Below, in pieces: positions 7,143-43,788 of a stretch of DNA of 64,000 nt. Both the position numbers and the translations under genes were made by a program. Source of the stretch: an uncultured delta proteobacterium (lineage in GTDB: Bacteria > Myxococcota_A > Polyangia > Polyangiales > Polyangiaceae); the NCBI GenBank assembly GCA_963696385.1, contig CAVOKF010000007.1, positions 1,184,001 to 1,248,000 on the forward strand. The letters are read 5' to 3'. The first letter of the stretch is position 1, and the number at the start of each line of letters is the position of its first letter. The notes below the pieces were generated by a model. It ran no database searches and had not been told where the DNA came from. It was given only the letters and a program-made list of their open reading frames with translations.

Positions 7143-8147
7143 TCAACGAATGCTCAGGCGTTCGGCAATCTGCACCGCGTTGAGGGCGGCACCTTTGCGC
7201 AGGTTGTCACTGACGACAAAGAGGTTGATGGCACCGGGAACGGCCAAATCATCCCGTACGCGACCGACGTAGACGGGGTCGGTGCCCGACGCGTGCACGG
7301 GTTGCGGGTGCTTGCCCGGGCCATAGGGACCCTCGGTCAACACGACGCCCGGCGCGTCGCGAAGCAGGCGCCGCGCTTCCTCGGCCCCCATGGGCCGGTG
7401 AAACTGAACGTGAATCGCTTCGGAGTGCCCGTTGAGCACCGGTACGCGCACGGTCGTGGGAGAGACCCCGATACGCGGATCTCCCAGAATCTTGCGCGTC
7501 TCCTGGATGATCTTGGTCTCCTCCTCCGAGTAGTCGTCTTCGCCTGACTTCCAGTCGCAAAGCACGTTGAAAGCGATGATCCCGGGGAATACGCGAGGCT
7601 CAGGTGGACGGCCCTCGAGCACGGCGCGCGATTGCGCCAGCAGTTCTTCGGCGGCGGCATGCCCCTTGCCGCTGGTGGCTTGGTATGTGGAAACGACCAC
7701 GTGCCGGATGCGCGCGGCGTCGTGCAACGGTTTGAGTGCGACCACCATTTGAATGGTCGCGCAGTTCGGGTTGGCGATGATCCCCTTCGGCCGGTGTGCG
7801 GCGGCCCCCATATTCACTTCGGGCACGACGAGCGGCACCGCGGGATCCATGCGCCACGCGCTCGAGTTATCGATCACGACGGCTCCCGCTAAAGCGGCGA
7901 TGGGGCCGAATTCGCGCGATACGCTCGATCCCGCGCTGAACAGCGCCACGTCGACTCCGGCAAAAGCCTGCGGCGTGAGCTCGGCCACGGTCACTTCGCC
8001 CGATCCGAATCGAAGCGTTTGGCCGGAGCTCCGCGGACTCGCGAGCGCAACGAGACGCGTCAGCGGGAACTTACGTTCTTCCAGGATACGCAGCATCTCG
8101 CGACCGACTGCGCCGGTCGCGCCAACCACGGCGACAACGAGGGACAT
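7143..8147 (-). CDS. asd: Aspartate-semialdehyde dehydrogenase
   Basis: GATGAVG, IDNSSAWRM, ANPNCAT catalytic Cys, DNLRKGAALNAVQIAE. Confidence 0.97.
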   Translation of the reverse strand: MSLVVAVVGATGAVGREMLRILEERKFPLTRLVALASPRSSGQTLRFGSGEVTVAELTPQAFAGVDVALFSAGSSVSREFGPIAALAGAVVIDNSSAWRMDPAVPLVVPEVNMGAAAHRPKGIIANPNCATIQMVVALKPLHDAARIRHVVVSTYQATSGKGHAAAEELLAQSRAVLEGRPPEPRVFPGIIAFNVLCDWKSGEDDYSEEETKIIQETRKILGDPRIGVSPTTVRVPVLNGHSEAIHVQFHRPMGAEEARRLLRDAPGVVLTEGPYGPGKHPQPVHASGTDPVYVGRVRDDLAVPGAINLFVVSDNLRKGAALNAVQIAERLSIR

Positions 8148-8213
8148 CGTCGAGACATTGGCTCAACTTGGCCGGCCGGTCCACTCGTGAAAGCCAACTG
8201 CTACGATCGGTTT

Positions 8214-11200
8214 GTGAAGCACGCGGCACGGGGCCCACGGGTCGCGCGGGGAAACTCGCTCACCTGGTCGGCCGCGGTGCTCGGTGGGTCCGCCGCCTGC
8301 ACGATTTCACTCCCCGTGGCTTTTCGCCCGCCCTCCGATGTAGGCGATGGTGAGAACACCTCCACCTTGCGGGGAGTGCAGGGCGCCGACATCTCCGCGC
8401 CCACGGGCGGCGAGGGTGCCCGTCTGCTTCCGGTGAGTCTGCAGGAGGCGCGCGCCTGGGGGGCAGAGTCGGACGGAGGAGTTCGCGCCATCGTCTCGGG
8501 CCTGCGCATCGTCGTCGAACCGGACGGCGCCCTCACCGCCGCGTCGGACCGATTGCCCGCGTCGCCCTCCAGCGTCGCGGCCATTCCCGAGCGACTCGGT
8601 GCAGGCTTTCTCTTCGCCATCGGCACACAAGTGTGGCGCTCCGATACCTGGCTCGGTCGGGCGACCCCGATCTTCGCGTCGATTGCGTCGGGTGCGCCGA
8701 TCGGATCGATCCTCGTGGGCCTCGACCGGGCGTATCTACGGTACGCGCCGGGATCGCTCGTGGCGGTCGATCCACGCAACGGCGAATCGCTCGATCTCGG
8801 GCCACTCCCCGCCTCGCCGCACCTCGGCGCCGTCGTCGCCCTCGACGCCTGGCGAGCGCTGGTCGTCGCGGATCTACGTGGCGCGCTCGTGACGATGGAC
8901 GCGGGTGCCTCGTGGCATCCGACCACGCTGCCGATGCCGCCGACCGAGATCGTCGCCATGGACGACGCGTTCGGGGCGTGGGCGCCGGACGAACGCGGCC
9001 ACGCGCAATGGTGGCTTGTCCGCTCGGACGGTCAGAGCGAAGGGCTTCCTTCGCGGCCGCCTCACACCCATTTTCCCCTTTCGCGCCCGGTGCATCCCCA
9101 GGAGAAGTCCGACGCGAGCCCGCGACGGATGGACGATCGAAACGCGATGCGGGCCATCTTGGGCCAGCGTCCCCTTGCCGCGGCCATCGAGGATGGCTGG
9201 CCCCTGAGTGACGGGACGGCGATGGTCGCACGCGGTGGGGCTGTCGCGCGGGTTCGTCTCTCGGACGGGGCGGTGCTCGACACCGTAATGGACGCGTTTC
9301 CGCTCTCCCCGGCACGGTGCCACGGGATTTCTCTGTCGCGTCCCGGCGCCCGCAGCGCCTTCGGTTTTGTCTGCGGCGAGCCACTCGGCCGCACTCGGAT
9401 TTACGGGTGGAATTCGTCATCGGGCACCTTGGTCGAGCTTCGCCGGTTTGACGACGCCCGGCAGGTGACCGCTTGCGGCAACGGGGCTCTCGCGGTGCGA
9501 GGAGGATGCGCCGGCGTGGCCCAGGCGGGGACGCGCGCGGACCAAGCGGCGTGGTGCGTCATGGGTTCGGATCAGCGGTGGCAGGAATTGCGCACTGGCG
9601 CGCTTGACGGCGGCGACAGGGCAGAGCTCGTCGCGCTGTCCGACCAACGCATCATCGTCATCCGGTCTCCCATCGGCGGGGACTTGGCGACCGCGACATT
9701 GACCATCATTCCTGCGGGACCCGGGTCTCCGGAGACCGTTCCGGTCCGGCTGCCGCCGCTGCCCGCCCAGGTGCGAGACGTGCTGAGGTTCGGCACTTGG
9801 ATGGATGGGTTCGAGGAGCGGCGCCCCGGTGTCCTCGGGGGCTGGGTGGACGCGGGCGATGTGGTGATCGGCATCGAGATCGACGGCACCGGCACCGCAC
9901 GCGTCGGCGAGTACCTCCGCGACGCAGGCCCGCCCATCGTCTCGGGACGTTGGGCACTCGGCTGGACGGCGTCACGGCGCGGCTTCGAGTCCGTCGATGG
10001 CGGAATGACGTGGAGCAAAGCGCTCACGCTACCCGATCCCATCGCCGAGCCGGATGCCGAACGTGAGCGTGGATGCGGGCCCATCGGCTGCGTGGCCGCC
10101 GGCTGGATGCGAATCGGCTGGGGGACGCACGACGCACCTCGTCCGCCGGCGCCACCTATGTTTCTCGCCGCACGGTCGGCCCCGATCGCTCCGGCCGATC
10201 TGCGCCTCCGCTGCGAGCCTCTCGCCCCGAGGCCGCCTATCGTCGCGTCGGGCCCATCGCCGTCGGCGCTCCGAGTCACCGCCACGCACCTGGATCCCGC
10301 GCGCTCCCGCACCTCGCAGGCGGCCGGTGTCGACACCTGGGGCTCCGTTGCCGATTTTCCTTCGTTTTCCGGATTGGCCGGCCCGGCTCTCGTCGGCGGC
10401 GACCTCGGGCTCACGGTCGAAGCGTTCGTCGGGACACGCCCGCTCGGCCGGGTGTACGCCTGGGGCCCCGCCACGGGCGATTGGGACTCGTTCGGAGGGT
10501 GGCAGGTGCGTTGGGATTGGGCCTGGGGTGGGTGGCAGGACGCACGATCGTCGGCCGCTGCGCCCTCCCCTTGGCCCACGCTCGATAGCGCGCGGCGCGG
10601 GCTGGGAATCGGCTCCAACATGCCGATTGCATGGACCCTCCTGCCGGGCGACGATCCGGATCACGCACTTCTCGTATCGAAACATGGCCCGGGGTCCTCC
10701 ATCGCTCGGCTCATGGTGCTCGAGAGCCATCGAGCGCCGCTGCCCGTGCAAAGAGACGGCAGCGATTCCTTTCCCGCGGTGGAAGGGGCGTTGCGCACCG
10801 ACGGCCGGTGGTTCGTCGTAACAGCCGAGGATCCGTCGGAGGGATTGGCCGCGGCGCTCTGGACCATCGAAGGGGATCGCGCCCGTGTTTGGCTCCGAAT
10901 ACCGCGATTGGGGTTCGACGCTCGCGCCGACCTCCGACTGGCCTCCCGAACCGATGGGCGCGCGGTCGGCTTGATCGCCGAGGGTCAACCGGACCTCGCC
11001 CGAGCGCCGAGTGCGTGGGTCGTGAGCGTCGACTTGCAAACGGGTCAGATGGCCGAGCCCGAGGCCCTGGCTGCGCTGGGCGCGTCCAAGCACGAGGTCG
11101 AAGTGTGCGCGCCCGACGATCCCGGTTGGGATTTCGACGTGCCGTACCCGGGCGTCATCGAGATCGAGGTCGGCGATCAATGGCGCTCAACCCTTCAGGC

Positions 11201-11414
11201 CGCGCGGGCACGAGTGCGCTCGACGCGGGATCGTGCATGCATCGTTCGGATCGCGGCCTCGGTCGACCCCTACGCGTCGATCACGCCCGAGGCGCTGACG
11301 GGCGGGGCAAGCCCCGGTGCGCCGACCCGGCAAGCGACAGGGCCCCCGCCGGTGCAACTCAGCGTCTTTTCGGCGCGCACGCGCTTTGCTTTGAATTGTG
11401 TGGCACGGCGATAG
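8214..11414 (+). CDS. Large hypothetical lipoprotein, probably beta-propeller/BNR-like
   Basis: Long open frame; possible lipobox (SAAC) after GTG 8214; Asp-box-like TMDAGASW and SVDGGMTW. Start uncertain. Confidence 0.65.
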   Translation: MKHAARGPRVARGNSLTWSAAVLGGSAACTISLPVAFRPPSDVGDGENTSTLRGVQGADISAPTGGEGARLLPVSLQEARAWGAESDGGVRAIVSGLRIVVEPDGALTAASDRLPASPSSVAAIPERLGAGFLFAIGTQVWRSDTWLGRATPIFASIASGAPIGSILVGLDRAYLRYAPGSLVAVDPRNGESLDLGPLPASPHLGAVVALDAWRALVVADLRGALVTMDAGASWHPTTLPMPPTEIVAMDDAFGAWAPDERGHAQWWLVRSDGQSEGLPSRPPHTHFPLSRPVHPQEKSDASPRRMDDRNAMRAILGQRPLAAAIEDGWPLSDGTAMVARGGAVARVRLSDGAVLDTVMDAFPLSPARCHGISLSRPGARSAFGFVCGEPLGRTRIYGWNSSSGTLVELRRFDDARQVTACGNGALAVRGGCAGVAQAGTRADQAAWCVMGSDQRWQELRTGALDGGDRAELVALSDQRIIVIRSPIGGDLATATLTIIPAGPGSPETVPVRLPPLPAQVRDVLRFGTWMDGFEERRPGVLGGWVDAGDVVIGIEIDGTGTARVGEYLRDAGPPIVSGRWALGWTASRRGFESVDGGMTWSKALTLPDPIAEPDAERERGCGPIGCVAAGWMRIGWGTHDAPRPPAPPMFLAARSAPIAPADLRLRCEPLAPRPPIVASGPSPSALRVTATHLDPARSRTSQAAGVDTWGSVADFPSFSGLAGPALVGGDLGLTVEAFVGTRPLGRVYAWGPATGDWDSFGGWQVRWDWAWGGWQDARSSAAAPSPWPTLDSARRGLGIGSNMPIAWTLLPGDDPDHALLVSKHGPGSSIARLMVLESHRAPLPVQRDGSDSFPAVEGALRTDGRWFVVTAEDPSEGLAAALWTIEGDRARVWLRIPRLGFDARADLRLASRTDGRAVGLIAEGQPDLARAPSAWVVSVDLQTGQMAEPEALAALGASKHEVEVCAPDDPGWDFDVPYPGVIEIEVGDQWRSTLQAARARVRSTRDRACIVRIAASVDPYASITPEALTGGASPGAPTRQATGPPPVQLSVFSARTRFALNCVARR

Positions 11415-11552
11415 CTCGTCCGCTCCTCCGCCGCCCCCCCGCACCCGAGGCGACTCGTCGCCCGCACTCGCGATCGTGCACCCGAGCGGCCAGGTCTTTC
11501 AAAGTTGCACGGCCGCCAGCCGCTTTCCTCGTGTTTTCCGCGAAAAAGTCGG

Positions 11553-11568
11553 TGGCACGACCACTGCA
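11553..11568 (+). promoter_or_regulatory. Sigma54 (-24/-12) promoter
   Basis: TGGCACGACCACTGCA: GG-N10-GC, close match to consensus TGGCACG-N4-TTGCW. Confidence 0.75.
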
Positions 11569-11577
11569 CTCAACCCG

Positions 11578-11634
11578 AGTGCCCGTGTGGAGTGAGGCTG
11601 CCCCCCCGGCCCCTCTGCGCGGGCACTTTTTTTT
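11578..11634 (+). ncRNA. Candidate ~57-nt small RNA: single hairpin with C-only loop and intrinsic terminator
   Basis: 15-bp stem 11578-11592/11613-11627 (3 G-U pairs), inner stem GGCTG/CGGCC, CCCCCC loop, T8 at 11627-11634; begins at the predicted sigma54 +1. Confidence 0.65.
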
Positions 11635-11637
11635 GGT

Positions 11638-11994
11638 TCATCGAGCGGGCGACCCATCGGCCCCGATGATTTCGACGCCCGGGCCCGGATCCCACACGAC
11701 GACGTCGTCCCCTTCGACGAGGGCGGTCAATCGACGCTGATCGCCACATAGACCGCGCGGCCACAAGAGGCGCCCGGTGACCAAGTCGAACGCATAGGCG
11801 TGCATCGGACACAGGACGCAGGCTCCGCGTCGTTCGCCTTCGCTCAGACTCGCGCCCGCGTGATTGCAGGCGTCCTCGATGGCGTGGGGCGTATCGTCGA
11901 CGAGCGCGACGAGCGCGTGAAAGGGTGGATATTCGAGCCGCACCATGGCGCCGTTCGCGAGACGCGCCCGCGGCACGCGCCCGATCCATTTCAT
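11638..11994 (-). CDS. Rieske [2Fe-2S] ferredoxin
   Basis: CNHAG and CPMH motifs, FDLVTG. Confidence 0.9.
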   Translation of the reverse strand: MKWIGRVPRARLANGAMVRLEYPPFHALVALVDDTPHAIEDACNHAGASLSEGERRGACVLCPMHAYAFDLVTGRLLWPRGLCGDQRRLTALVEGDDVVVWDPGPGVEIIGADGSPAR

Positions 11995-33269: not shown

Positions 33270-34694
33270 TCATTCGCCTTTCTCGCTCGACCCCTCGCGA
33301 AGCCCGAGCTCCTTCATTTTGAGCTGCAGGCCCTTGCGTGAAATCTTGAGAAGCCGGGCGGCGTGGGTGACATTGCCGCTGGTCTGCTTGAGGGCACGGC
33401 TGACGAGCTCCTTCTCGAGCCGGCTCATCGCGACCTTGACGTGCTCTTTCAATCCCCCCTCGCTCGCCAAGGCGGCCTGCAACTCGACCTCGGCAAGAGG
33501 GACGTTGGCCGTTGGGGGGACACCGCGCACCTCAGGCGGTAGATTGCTCGCGCGCAACTGTTGGGTGTCGGAAAAGAGAACGGCTCTCTCGATGACATTT
33601 TCGAGCTCACGAATGTTGCCGGGCCACGGGTACTGGACCAGAAGGTCGCGCGCGTCGGCTTCGACCCCCTCGACGCGCTTGCGCAACCGTTCGTTGAATT
33701 TCGCCAAGAAGTGCTCGACCAATAGCGGGATATCGCTCGTGCGATCCCGCAGCGCCGGAAGTCGAATCGGCACGACGTTGAGCCGATAGAACAAATCCTC
33801 GCGAAAGACCCCCGAGGCGATGAGCTTCTTGAGATCTCGGTTCGTCGCGGCGACGAGTCGCACGTCGACGCGAATCGTCTTGATCCCTCCGACGCGCTCG
33901 AACTCGCTCTCCTGCAGTGCGCGAAGAAGCTTGACCTGCATCTCGATCGGAATCTCGCCGATCTCGTCGAGGAACAAAGTTCCGCCATTCGCGAGTTCGA
34001 ACCGACCCGGCTTGCTCGTCACCGCTCCGGTGAACGCGCCGCGCTCGTAGCCGAAAAGCTCGCTCTCGATGAGCTCCTTCGGAATCGCGGCGCAATTGAC
34101 TTTGATGAATGGCTTGTCCCTCCGGGCGGAATGCTCGTGAAGAGCCCGCGCAACGAGTTCCTTGCCCGTGCCGCTCTCGCCGGTGATGAGCACGGTCGTC
34201 GGCGTGTCGGCCACCCGTTCGAGGATCGCGTAGAGCTCCGCGATGCCCGGCGATCCTCCGATGATGCCGAAGCGTGCGCCACGTGAGGCGGGAGTCGGCG
34301 TCGCGTCGTGACCCCGGAGCTCGCGTGTGCGAAGGGCCTTCGTGACGATCTGGCGGATTTCGTCCTTGTCGAAAGGCTTGGTCACGAAGTCGAAGGCACC
34401 GGTCTTGAGCGCTTCGACGGCGGTGTCGATGGTTCCGTGCGCCGTGACCAAGATGACCGGCAGCTCTGGCTCCTCTTCGAGGGCCTTTTTGAGAAGAGTC
34501 ATGCCGTCGACCTTGGGCATCTTGAGATCGGTGATGACCAGGTCGATGTGGTGCTCTCGAAGCAGAGCCAGCCCTTGCTCGCCGTCTTCGGCGGTCAGCA
34601 CGTCGTATCCATCGCGAGTCAGCTGGGCGGACAGAATCTTCCGCAGGTTCGGCTCGTCGTCGACGATCAGGACCTGCTTTCGCTCAGGAATCAT
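33270..34694 (-). CDS. Sigma54-dependent response regulator (NtrC family)
   Basis: Receiver domain, [28 protein letters not shown], Fis-type HTH. Confidence 0.96.
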
Positions 34695-43293: not shown

Positions 43294-43788
43294 ATGGCTG
43301 AACCACGAACACTTCGCTGCTACGAATACGTCAATCGGCCGTACGCGGCTGTGAGCGAGCTCCTTCATCGCGACCCGCTCAAGTTGCTCCAGCGAGCGAC
43401 GTCGTCGGCGGCCGCGCGGGCGAGTTCTTTGTTTGCAAACTTGCACGTGCACGTCGCTGGCATCGACATTGGCGTGGACGTGCGCGTTCTGGTGCGCCGA
43501 GTGCGCGACATGGAGACGGGACCCGGTATCGTGCCGGTCACGCGAGTCGAGCTGTCATGGGAGGCCACGCGCGCCGCAGCGCTTTTTCCGACCATGCTCG
43601 CCGAACTGTCCGCTCAGCCGCTGTCGGCGACGGAAACGCAACTCGATATCGCGGGAACGTACTGGCTGCCGCTCGGCCTTCTCGGCAACGCGATCGACTC
43701 CACGATAGGACACCGGATCGCGGAGGCCACCGTGCACCGCTTGCTCGGGGATCTCGTGGAGCAGATTCGAGACGAGCTCAAAGCCTAG
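43294..43788 (+). CDS. Hypothetical protein (possible SRPBCC-like fold)
   Basis: YEYVNRPY, LSWEA, LFP, GHRIAEA; clean ORF. Confidence 0.7.
   Translation: MAEPRTLRCYEYVNRPYAAVSELLHRDPLKLLQRATSSAAARASSLFANLHVHVAGIDIGVDVRVLVRRVRDMETGPGIVPVTRVELSWEATRAAALFPTMLAELSAQPLSATETQLDIAGTYWLPLGLLGNAIDSTIGHRIAEATVHRLLGDLVEQIRDELKA

Follow-up and report, generated by a model that had tools for sequence, protein, structure and literature searches.

A conserved poly-C-loop hairpin behind a sigma-54-type promoter: a predicted small RNA family of Polyangiaceae

We analysed a stretch of 64,000 nucleotides (nt) from the genome of an uncultured member of Polyangiaceae, referred to below as the window (contig C7, 1184001-1248000, of an assembly with eight contigs, 6.94 Mb and 65.8% G+C). 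Between two convergent genes of the window lies a short hairpin that very probably belongs to a real, independently transcribed RNA gene. In the genus of the window, transcription of this gene is likely to be driven by sigma-54. The predicted product, a small RNA (sRNA) of about 56 nt topped by a loop of cytosines, appears from sequence comparison to represent an uncatalogued family with no Rfam match, a kind of regulator known from Myxococcus. Our preferred explanation is that of a minimal sigma-54-dependent sRNA with conserved upstream boxes and its own terminator, finding its targets by pairing of the C loop; taken as a whole, we regard it as moderately likely.

A preliminary description of this DNA had reported a near-consensus sigma-54 promoter in a gap of about 220 bp between convergent genes, and this proved correct. 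The gap measures 223 nt from the stop codon of the upstream open reading frame (ORF) to that of the convergent Rieske ORF (Table 1). The promoter TGGCACGACCACTGCA has the form TGGCAC-N5-CTGCA, with GG at 11554-11555 and GC at 11566-11567, spaced by 10 nt. Promoters of sigma-54 are recognised by GG at -24/-25 and GC at -12/-13, 10 nt apart, and their consensus is TGGCAC-N5-TTGCA. When C11567 is set at -12, GG and GC occupy -25/-24 and -13/-12 and the start point falls on 11579, the first base of the stem, just as had been predicted.

The motif TGGCAC-N5-NTGCA is rare, being found at eight sites on both strands of the whole 6.94-Mb genome. One of the seven other sites, TGGCACGAGCACTGCA at G000:C8:96760 (+), is a single base off the promoter of the RNA, and an ORF starts about 50 nt downstream of it. 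The early residues of this ORF, GFTLVEMMIVVVIIG, we take to be the N-terminus or leader of a type IV pilin. Type IV pilin genes are classic sigma-54 targets, and the site serves as an internal positive control for the motif. A profile search of the genome found rpoN once (one Sigma54_DBD match, 215 bits) and, for enhancer-binding proteins, 52 Sigma54_activat matches, of which about 44 score higher than 130 bits. Another TGGCAC, at 11401-11406, was discarded as a chance occurrence; it overlaps the stop codon of the upstream gene and lacks conservation even in the closest relative.

The + strand of 11579-11634 folds into 14 pairs, a 1-nt bulge, one pair, another 1-nt bulge and five pairs closed by the 6-nt loop CCCCCC. 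The resulting hairpin of 20 pairs spans 11579-11626, and the run of seven C at 11601-11607 includes the final C that closes the loop. The preliminary description was right on the hairpin, the CCCCCC loop and the T8 that follows; its 15-bp stem with a 5-bp inner stem has to be replaced by 14+1+5 pairs. The fold energy is -35.1 kcal/mol (z -5.45), reached by none of 200 shuffled sequences, and the longer stretch 11570-11640 gives -38 kcal/mol (z -4.9). The opposite strand reaches -22.8 kcal/mol (z -1.5), a value equalled by 15 of 200 shuffles. A simple terminator scan of the window did not list the hairpin at 11579-11626, probably owing to its bulges.

Table 1. Features of the RNA gene, its flanking genes and its sibling (window positions unless a contig is named)
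Feature	Position	Strand	Basis or remark
Conserved box 1, TCGCGATCGTGCAC, core TCGTGCA (11474-11480)	11468-11481	+	Candidate second regulator site; centre 29 bp upstream of box 2
Conserved box 2, TTTCAAAGTTGCAC, palindrome of TTTCA-N4-TGAAA type	11497-11510	+	Candidate enhancer/regulator site; centre about -75
Sigma-54-type promoter TGGCAC-N5-CTGCA, TGGCACGACCACTGCA	11553-11568	+	Sequence, genome count, 30-locus alignment
Predicted small RNA, about 56 nt	11579-11634	+	5' end inferred, +/-2 nt; 3' end within U tract
5' arm of conserved stem, GCCCGUGUGGAGUGAGGCUG	11581-11600	+	Bulged U11593 and A11595; 18 modelled pairs
CCCCCC loop, presumed seed	11601-11606	+	C run in all 90 distinct family sequences
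3' stem arm, CGGCCCCUCUGCGCGGGC	11607-11624	+	Alignment and covariation
U8 tract	11627-11634	+	With hairpin, 3' end of intrinsic-terminator type
Upstream gene, uncharacterised Asp-box/BNR-like protein	8019-11414	+	ORF, translation; 1131 codons
Convergent Rieske [2Fe-2S] ferredoxin gene	11638-11994	-	Pfam PF00355, E 2.3e-10
Sibling RNA gene (locus L052 1501-1725, L151)	G000:C3:701598-701822	-	R1 match, promoter, boxes

Next, we examined conservation of the element. The counts given for 24 and for 31 genomes of the same genus take in the unpublished genome G010 (also locus L175), on which no claim rests. A 321-nt query matched 23 of 24 same-genus genomes, nearly always over query positions 173-258 alone, which hold promoter and hairpin. 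An exact 31-nt core was present once per record in 29 species records. These are titled Polyangiaceae, Myxococcales, delta proteobacterium or Myxococcota metagenome-assembled genomes, plus one 3-kb contig in a 'Chloroflexi' bin, in agreement with the Polyangiaceae-type genome suggested beforehand.

Thirty non-identical loci from the genus of the window and its sister genus, duplicates removed, were aligned. The hairpin together with the start of its tail, about 50 nt, displays 93% identity per column, variation being confined to the first base, one bulge (A or C) and a few stem positions. Pairing survives in each of the 11 stem cells that have changed, ten by one-sided changes and one by a double change from G-C to A-U, and in alignment A1 13 of the 18 modelled pairs are invariant. 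The tail is T-rich in all 30 loci and interrupted in several. All 30 of the 30 loci have TGGC(A/G)(C/T)-N5-CTGC, always equally far from the hairpin; the preliminary description had proposed exactly this comparison, asking whether relatives keep GG-N10-GC along with the hairpin, and they do. Free variation is seen in the N5 spacer and in the 11-12 nt that separate -12 from the hairpin. Apart from promoter, hairpin and two upstream boxes, the rest of the intergenic sequence is unalignable.

A covariance model built from the hairpin, R1, scores 87.3 bits at 11579-11634 and extends the family well beyond the genus. Matches, mostly with E below 1e-10, were found in 79 of 151 Polyangiaceae genomes and in 51 of 89 genera, and in a phylum-wide sample strong matches were limited to Polyangiaceae (7 of 11 genomes). 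Five R1-negative genomes of at least 10.8 Mb contained no match in any of them. Outside Polyangiaceae, nine weak matches (at most 29 bits) were inspected and turned out to be ordinary terminators, except for L088. This locus (G322:C81:166840-166882, in another family of the class) carries a short GGCUGUCCCCCCGGCC hairpin (GCCGCAGCAGGCUGUCCCCCCGGCCGCUGCGGC plus U9), which shares the apex motif but is not preceded by a sigma-54 motif; distant relationship and convergence are the two explanations for it.

Ninety-two family loci, 90 of them distinct, were aligned to R1. Across the 18 pairs of the 90 distinct sequences, 99.8% of 1620 cells are paired, and both sides have changed in 14 of 18 pairs (80 cells). 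These counts overstate independence, since the loci are related to one another and their alignment was fitted to the model. None of 500 shuffles matched any of the observed measures of pairing and covariation, and registers slid along the stem pair at 38-61%. Four G-U pairs and many switches from U-G to C-G are possible on the + strand only. In all 90 sequences there is a run of 7-11 C including the closing C, with 6-10 C within the loop. This C run, the apex GGCUG/CGGCC and GGAG/CUCU are fixed throughout the family; the remaining stem varies by compensation. Because of this covariation and of G-U pairs that fit the + strand only, the comparison shows the hairpin to be under selection at the RNA level, on the + strand. 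The covariance search proposed in the preliminary description supports, by comparison, its reading of a minimal regulatory sRNA, together with the promoter that belongs to the hairpin.

Promoter classes of the family loci were assigned from sequence only. Pattern matching on the 92 loci gave 46 with a sigma-54 promoter only, 31 with a sigma-70-like promoter only, three with both and 12 unclassified. On inspection by eye, six of these 12 keep GG-N10-GC with one deviating letter, four have a -35/-10 pair and two have neither, which brings the totals to about 52 sigma-54-type, about 35 sigma-70-like and three with both. A looser classifier yielded 49, 34 and 5, with neither class at 4 loci. By pattern, at least 80 of 92 loci have a promoter of one class or the other at the fixed distance; by eye, about 90 of 92 do.

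The sigma-70-like pair reads TTGCAA-N17-TAC(C/T)T(C/G), with TGC before it as in an extended -10, and goes together with the lower stem GUCCGCG...CGCGGAC. In distant genera that lack GG, such a -35/-10 pair lies at the equivalent place and is aimed at the same start. CTGC(A/T) is found at the same place in both classes, and the geometry of both puts one common start point at model positions 1-4. Apparently, the promoter class has been switched in place while start site and upstream palindrome were retained.

A comparable arrangement, in promoter architecture only, is known for GlmY and GlmZ of Enterobacteriaceae. Their sigma-54 promoters have conserved upstream GlrR sites, with an overlapping sigma-70 promoter and the same start in some species and sigma-70 alone in others (PMC3045617). 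The RNAs themselves, their mechanism (mimicry, RapZ) and their phylum are unrelated to ours. Within the family described here, sigma-70-like promoters occur in many genera (loci L064-L136, e.g. L071, L074, L084, L106; TTGCAA-N17-TACCTC type), and the two classes are superimposed at three loci, L068, L074 and L118.

Upstream of the promoter, two boxes stand out from the unalignable remainder. Box 2 appears in the 30-locus alignment as cTTtCAA-NN-TTGcAC (11496-11510), and TTTCAA-N2-TTGCAC occurs once in the whole genome, namely here. A palindrome matching TTTCA-N4-TGAAA in at least 8 of 10 positions between -160 and -40 was detected in 64 of 92 family loci and in none of 184 controls, consisting of downstream flanks and shuffled upstream regions. 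By promoter class, it precedes 40 of 49 sigma-54 promoters, 20 of 34 sigma-70-like promoters, three of five loci with both and one of four with neither. Its centres in the sigma-54 class lie near -75, -86, -97 and -108. This phasing of about 11 bp keeps the site on one face of the helix, and the palindrome looks like an activator site.

Box 1 has a core, TCGTGCA, conserved to at least 90% in the 30 loci and resembles the second box of the sibling RNA described below, TT(T/G)CGATCCTG(A/C)A. It matches the TTTCA-N4-TGAAA palindrome in only 5 of 10 positions, and its assignment therefore rests on conservation. A box-like sequence at window position 43433, TTGCAAACTTGCAC, was rejected as a chance match: the sequence around it appears to be coding, and neither a promoter nor a hairpin follows.

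The genome contains a second gene of the same design. R1 matched G000:C3:701598-701658 (-) with 33 bits; this locus was detected via the hairpin model alone, and its promoter and boxes were seen afterwards. The promoter, TGGCAT-N5-TCGCA, stands at the right distance, preceded by two palindromes, TTTCAATTGTGAAA and TTTCGTTTCTGAAC, 32 bp apart. The hairpin GGCACCGCGUAGGCCGGCUCU-C8-GGGCCCCUAUGCGGUGCC (-36.6 kcal/mol, z -6.7) is followed by a U tail, and the gene, its promoter and boxes included, is conserved in 30 of 31 genus genomes. A degenerate box pattern has five matches genome-wide, two of which are the two RNA genes; the pattern was derived from both and is not independent of them. Upstream of the sibling there is, in this genome, a DDE transposase gene, and a gene for a DUF192 lipoprotein begins on the same strand about 40 nt past the terminator, so that the sibling could also be the leader of this gene.

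A third hairpin lies at G000:C6:56108-56165 (+; L051 1501-1558; R1 47 bits, -31.2 kcal/mol, z -2.7). It shares the apex GGCUGCCCCCCCGGCC and has a different yet compensated lower stem, no sigma-54 motif and no U tract. Copies resembling it in another genus genome (G019, contig 24) have a different conserved upstream sequence in common.

The simplest competing explanation takes the hairpin for nothing but the intrinsic terminator of the upstream Asp-box gene, with an incidental sigma-54-like motif and no separate RNA. The anatomy of hairpin plus U tract is that of a terminator, and in 20 of 20 loci of the genus and 26 of 31 loci of other genera a same-strand homologue of this gene stands directly before the RNA. 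Contigs from RNA libraries, moreover, cross promoter and hairpin unbroken. However, near-invariance of about 50 nt including the loop is abnormal for a terminator, the more so as the homologues of the gene share only 25-45% protein identity. The hairpin lies about 165 nt past the stop codon of the gene, with the conserved boxes in between, and a promoter accompanies it at the fixed distance in nearly all family loci. The sibling hairpin has the same kind of promoter and boxes in an unrelated context of transposase and DUF192 genes.

The preliminary description had itself named the observation that would leave only a terminator, i.e. relatives keeping the hairpin and losing GG-N10-GC. Since the hairpin keeps its own promoter of one class or the other, that reading fails, and we consider it highly improbable. 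With its own promoter and its own intrinsic terminator, the short hairpin at 11579-11634 very probably constitutes an independent RNA gene, not merely the terminator of the upstream gene.

The proximity of the convergent gene raises another possibility: the element might be of the cis-antisense kind, with the 3' end of the Rieske ferredoxin mRNA as its target. The Rieske stop codon is 4 nt beyond the U tract, and a single contig of an RNA library, coming from the Rieske gene, crosses the RNA gene and stops at about 11544, close to a weak site on the - strand that resembles a terminator. A single contig end is no evidence, however, and the Rieske gene adjoins the RNA in 17 of 20 loci of the genus but in just two of 31 loci of other genera, while the RNA is conserved throughout. 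It is extremely improbable that the element is of this kind. As to the terminator-like site (11542-11564, - strand), the sigma-54 motif itself forms a small inverted repeat there, GTGGTCGTGCCAC, followed by CGACTTTTTC on the - strand, and the simple scan reported it as terminator-like. It may be a weak terminator of the convergent gene, beside which the contig stops, or a product of chance.

The possibility that the RNA was not annotated, raised in the preliminary description together with a proposed Rfam scan, is supported by the searches. At the locus, Rfam 15 returned chance-level matches only with E up to 10 (e.g. suhB/mmgR, 13.8 bits, E 9), the 6C family giving no match, and five related loci had no match with E up to 1. 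Nor did the Pxr model RF01812, whose gathering score is 80 bits, match the locus with E up to 10; the highest score that it reached in the genome, 16.7 bits, belongs to another place. Homology to Pxr had not been claimed at the outset, a caution that this result justifies. The published Pxr probe and primer, used as patterns, had no occurrence in 401 genomes of the phylum or in five large genomes, and in one family yielded only chance matches with three mismatches in 5 of 28 genomes. No such RNA was described for Polyangiaceae in the literature searched, most subscription journals lying outside that search.

The likeness to Pxr nevertheless deserves attention. Pxr is about 108 nt long, folds into three stem-loops, lies downstream of pxrR (nla19, NtrC-like) and is processed to give a long and a short form (PMC5568312). 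It is apparently transcribed by sigma-54 with an upstream enhancer region, and the loop of its stem-loop SL1 is essential and C-rich (PMC5684412, PMC5568312). Oligonucleotides of SL1 have at least six C in the loop, and a single change from C to A abolishes function (PMC5684412, PMC5568312). In M. xanthus, which has no Hfq, Pxr is reported to contact several mRNAs near the Shine-Dalgarno (SD) sequence (preprint 10.1101/2025.09.11.675593).

The RNA of the window shares with Pxr the sigma-54 promoter, an upstream region, the C-loop hairpin and a myxobacterial host devoid of Hfq (none was found in our genome, at 96% completeness). It differs in being one hairpin of about 56 nt behind an Asp-box gene, with no adjacent regulator gene, in Polyangiaceae.

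Could it be a highly diverged Pxr orthologue, reduced to the SL1 module? Such an origin would be compatible with our preferred explanation. Beyond the shared promoter type, the enhancer region (putative in our case) and Hfq-less Myxococcota hosts, both RNAs have a purine-rich 5' arm, a loop of at least six C and a 3' arm of CCCCU type (PMC5568312, PMC5684412). Against it stand the failure of RF01812 at the locus and the difference between three stem-loops after pxrR and one hairpin after an Asp-box gene. R1 found no convincing match outside the family, in a sample that itself appears to be without pxr carriers (RF01812 matched none of 151 phylum genomes). We consider orthology unlikely.

Other known systems resemble single aspects of the RNA. 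The Qrr RNAs of Vibrio, working with LuxO, are several sibling sRNAs with sigma-54 promoters and palindromic activator sites of TTGCA-N3-TGCAA type, and they need Hfq. RepG of Helicobacter uses the C/U-rich loop of its terminator hairpin as a seed that pairs with a G repeat. Neither has any sequence relation to the RNA of the window, whose palindrome has a 4-nt centre. The 6C RNA of Actinobacteria (B11 in mycobacteria) is likewise found in high-GC hosts and has C-rich hairpin loops, but several of them and in a different phylum; it is not known to be sigma-54-dependent. Its C-rich loops bind mRNA, and G-C pairing suffices for this without Hfq or ProQ (PMC6486639).

With these precedents in mind, the action of the RNA can be pictured as follows. 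Sigma-54 RNA polymerase would start an RNA of about 56 nt from TGGCAC-N5-CTGCA on the + strand, activated probably by an enhancer-binding protein that occupies one palindromic box or two, in phase, near -75 and -104, and would stop at the RNA's own hairpin and U tract. The comparison shows the gene with its strand, structure, promoter and upstream boxes; what we infer is that sigma-54 is needed in vivo, where precisely the 5' end lies, that an enhancer-binding protein occupies the boxes, and the entire targeting mechanism. The product would be a single, very stable hairpin exposing six to seven loop cytosines, which could pair, without a chaperone, with G runs in or near the ribosome-binding sites of a limited number of mRNAs; following strand invasion, the C/U-rich 3' arm may take part as well. 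Translation or stability of the target mRNAs would be lowered, and the sibling RNA from contig C3, with the same design of promoter, box and loop, would act alongside. We give about even chances to the proposal that the C loop acts by base-pairing with G-rich mRNA sites.

Several observations weigh against this explanation, besides the kinship of the aligned loci mentioned above. Expression data remain silent: 18 RNA-library rows held a small share of query words, and in the four metatranscriptome sets examined, as assembled contigs only, no discrete transcript was seen. One contig per set covers the hairpin and extends past both of its ends: by 19-77 nt downstream and, on the other side, by 75-129 nt upstream or else into the Rieske gene. 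These contigs may represent DNA, read-through or antisense RNA, and they say nothing about a 56-nt species. The palindrome is kept before sigma-70-like promoters, which is unexpected for the site of an enhancer-binding protein and is not explained by such a protein alone. No enhancer-binding-protein gene adjoins the RNA, and no Sigma54_activat gene was found within about 20 kb. The RNA nearly always follows the same gene and might have an additional terminator role for it; it may end the transcript of that gene too, or work in the same process.

The targets pose a further difficulty. A run of at least six G within 22 nt upstream was found at only 6 of 1871 well-defined ORF starts, and these six candidates, according to Pfam a DinG-like helicase, NusG and four unknowns, have no common theme. 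A looser search for G runs at SD distance gave 182 candidates. The usual SD sequence in this genome is GGAG or GAGG, not a G run. Finally, the near-invariance of both stem arms exceeds what a seed confined to the loop would need.

As an alternative, a sigma-54-driven RNA might bind or titrate a protein through its invariant stem and poly-C loop, with no mRNA pairing. Such a role would account for arms kept in the genus beyond the need of structure or of a 6-nt seed and for the scarcity of G runs in translation-initiation regions; in addition, a hairpin of -35 kcal/mol leaves the loop alone accessible. Across the whole family, however, the stem is free to vary by compensation in 14 of 18 pairs, and nothing but the C run, the apex and GGAG/CUCU is fixed. 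The locus shows no linkage to a candidate binding protein, and both C-loop RNAs already known, 6C and Pxr, work on mRNAs. We rate binding to a protein as rather unlikely and retain pairing of the C loop in our preferred explanation.

All of this is computational, and its value is that of a well-supported prediction. In the literature searched, Pxr is the sole myxobacterial sRNA studied functionally and is described as confined to one suborder, its origin being placed within Cystobacterineae (PMC5568312). The RNA of the window belongs to a strongly conserved family of Pxr-like design in about half of the sampled Polyangiaceae genera, and this family allows a recent origin of Pxr to be tested. 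With 56 nt and one loop, it offers a minimal system for C-loop target finding without Hfq. It also provides a natural example of an sRNA gene changing promoter class with start site and upstream site constant. The palindrome, single in the genome and present in a related form at the sibling, should lead to the cognate regulator.

A bolder proposal, which we put forward as speculation and think rather improbable in its entirety, is that the poly-C-loop hairpin is the ancient core of Pxr-type regulators. Polyangiaceae would keep the minimal form, with two or three sibling genes under one dedicated regulator acting through phased TTTCA-N4-TGAAA sites in a Qrr-like circuit; within the family, the RNA and its site would have stayed in place while the promoter changed from sigma-54 to sigma-70. 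On this view Pxr of Myxococcus descends from the minimal form by elaboration and did not arise recently in Cystobacterineae.

Finally, we describe the neighbouring genes. The product of the upstream ORF is a large protein that evolves fast, carries Asp-box-like motifs and has an N-terminal region resembling a lipobox; it is probably a lipoprotein, with its true start probably near 8214. Pfam gave only a sub-threshold BNR match, NCBIfam and PDB sequence searches no match, and the ESM Atlas BNR/sortilin-like leads with scores of at most 0.85. The nearest Sigma54_activat gene lies at about 33765-34265 (-) of the window (251 bits), about 22 kb from the RNA. Behind the Rieske ORF lies folE, the gene of GTP cyclohydrolase I; both are neighbours of the RNA in 17 of 20 genus loci and seldom outside the genus. 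The wider neighbourhood includes asd, DAHP synthase, folE, DUF2203, mlaE, cysS and similar genes.

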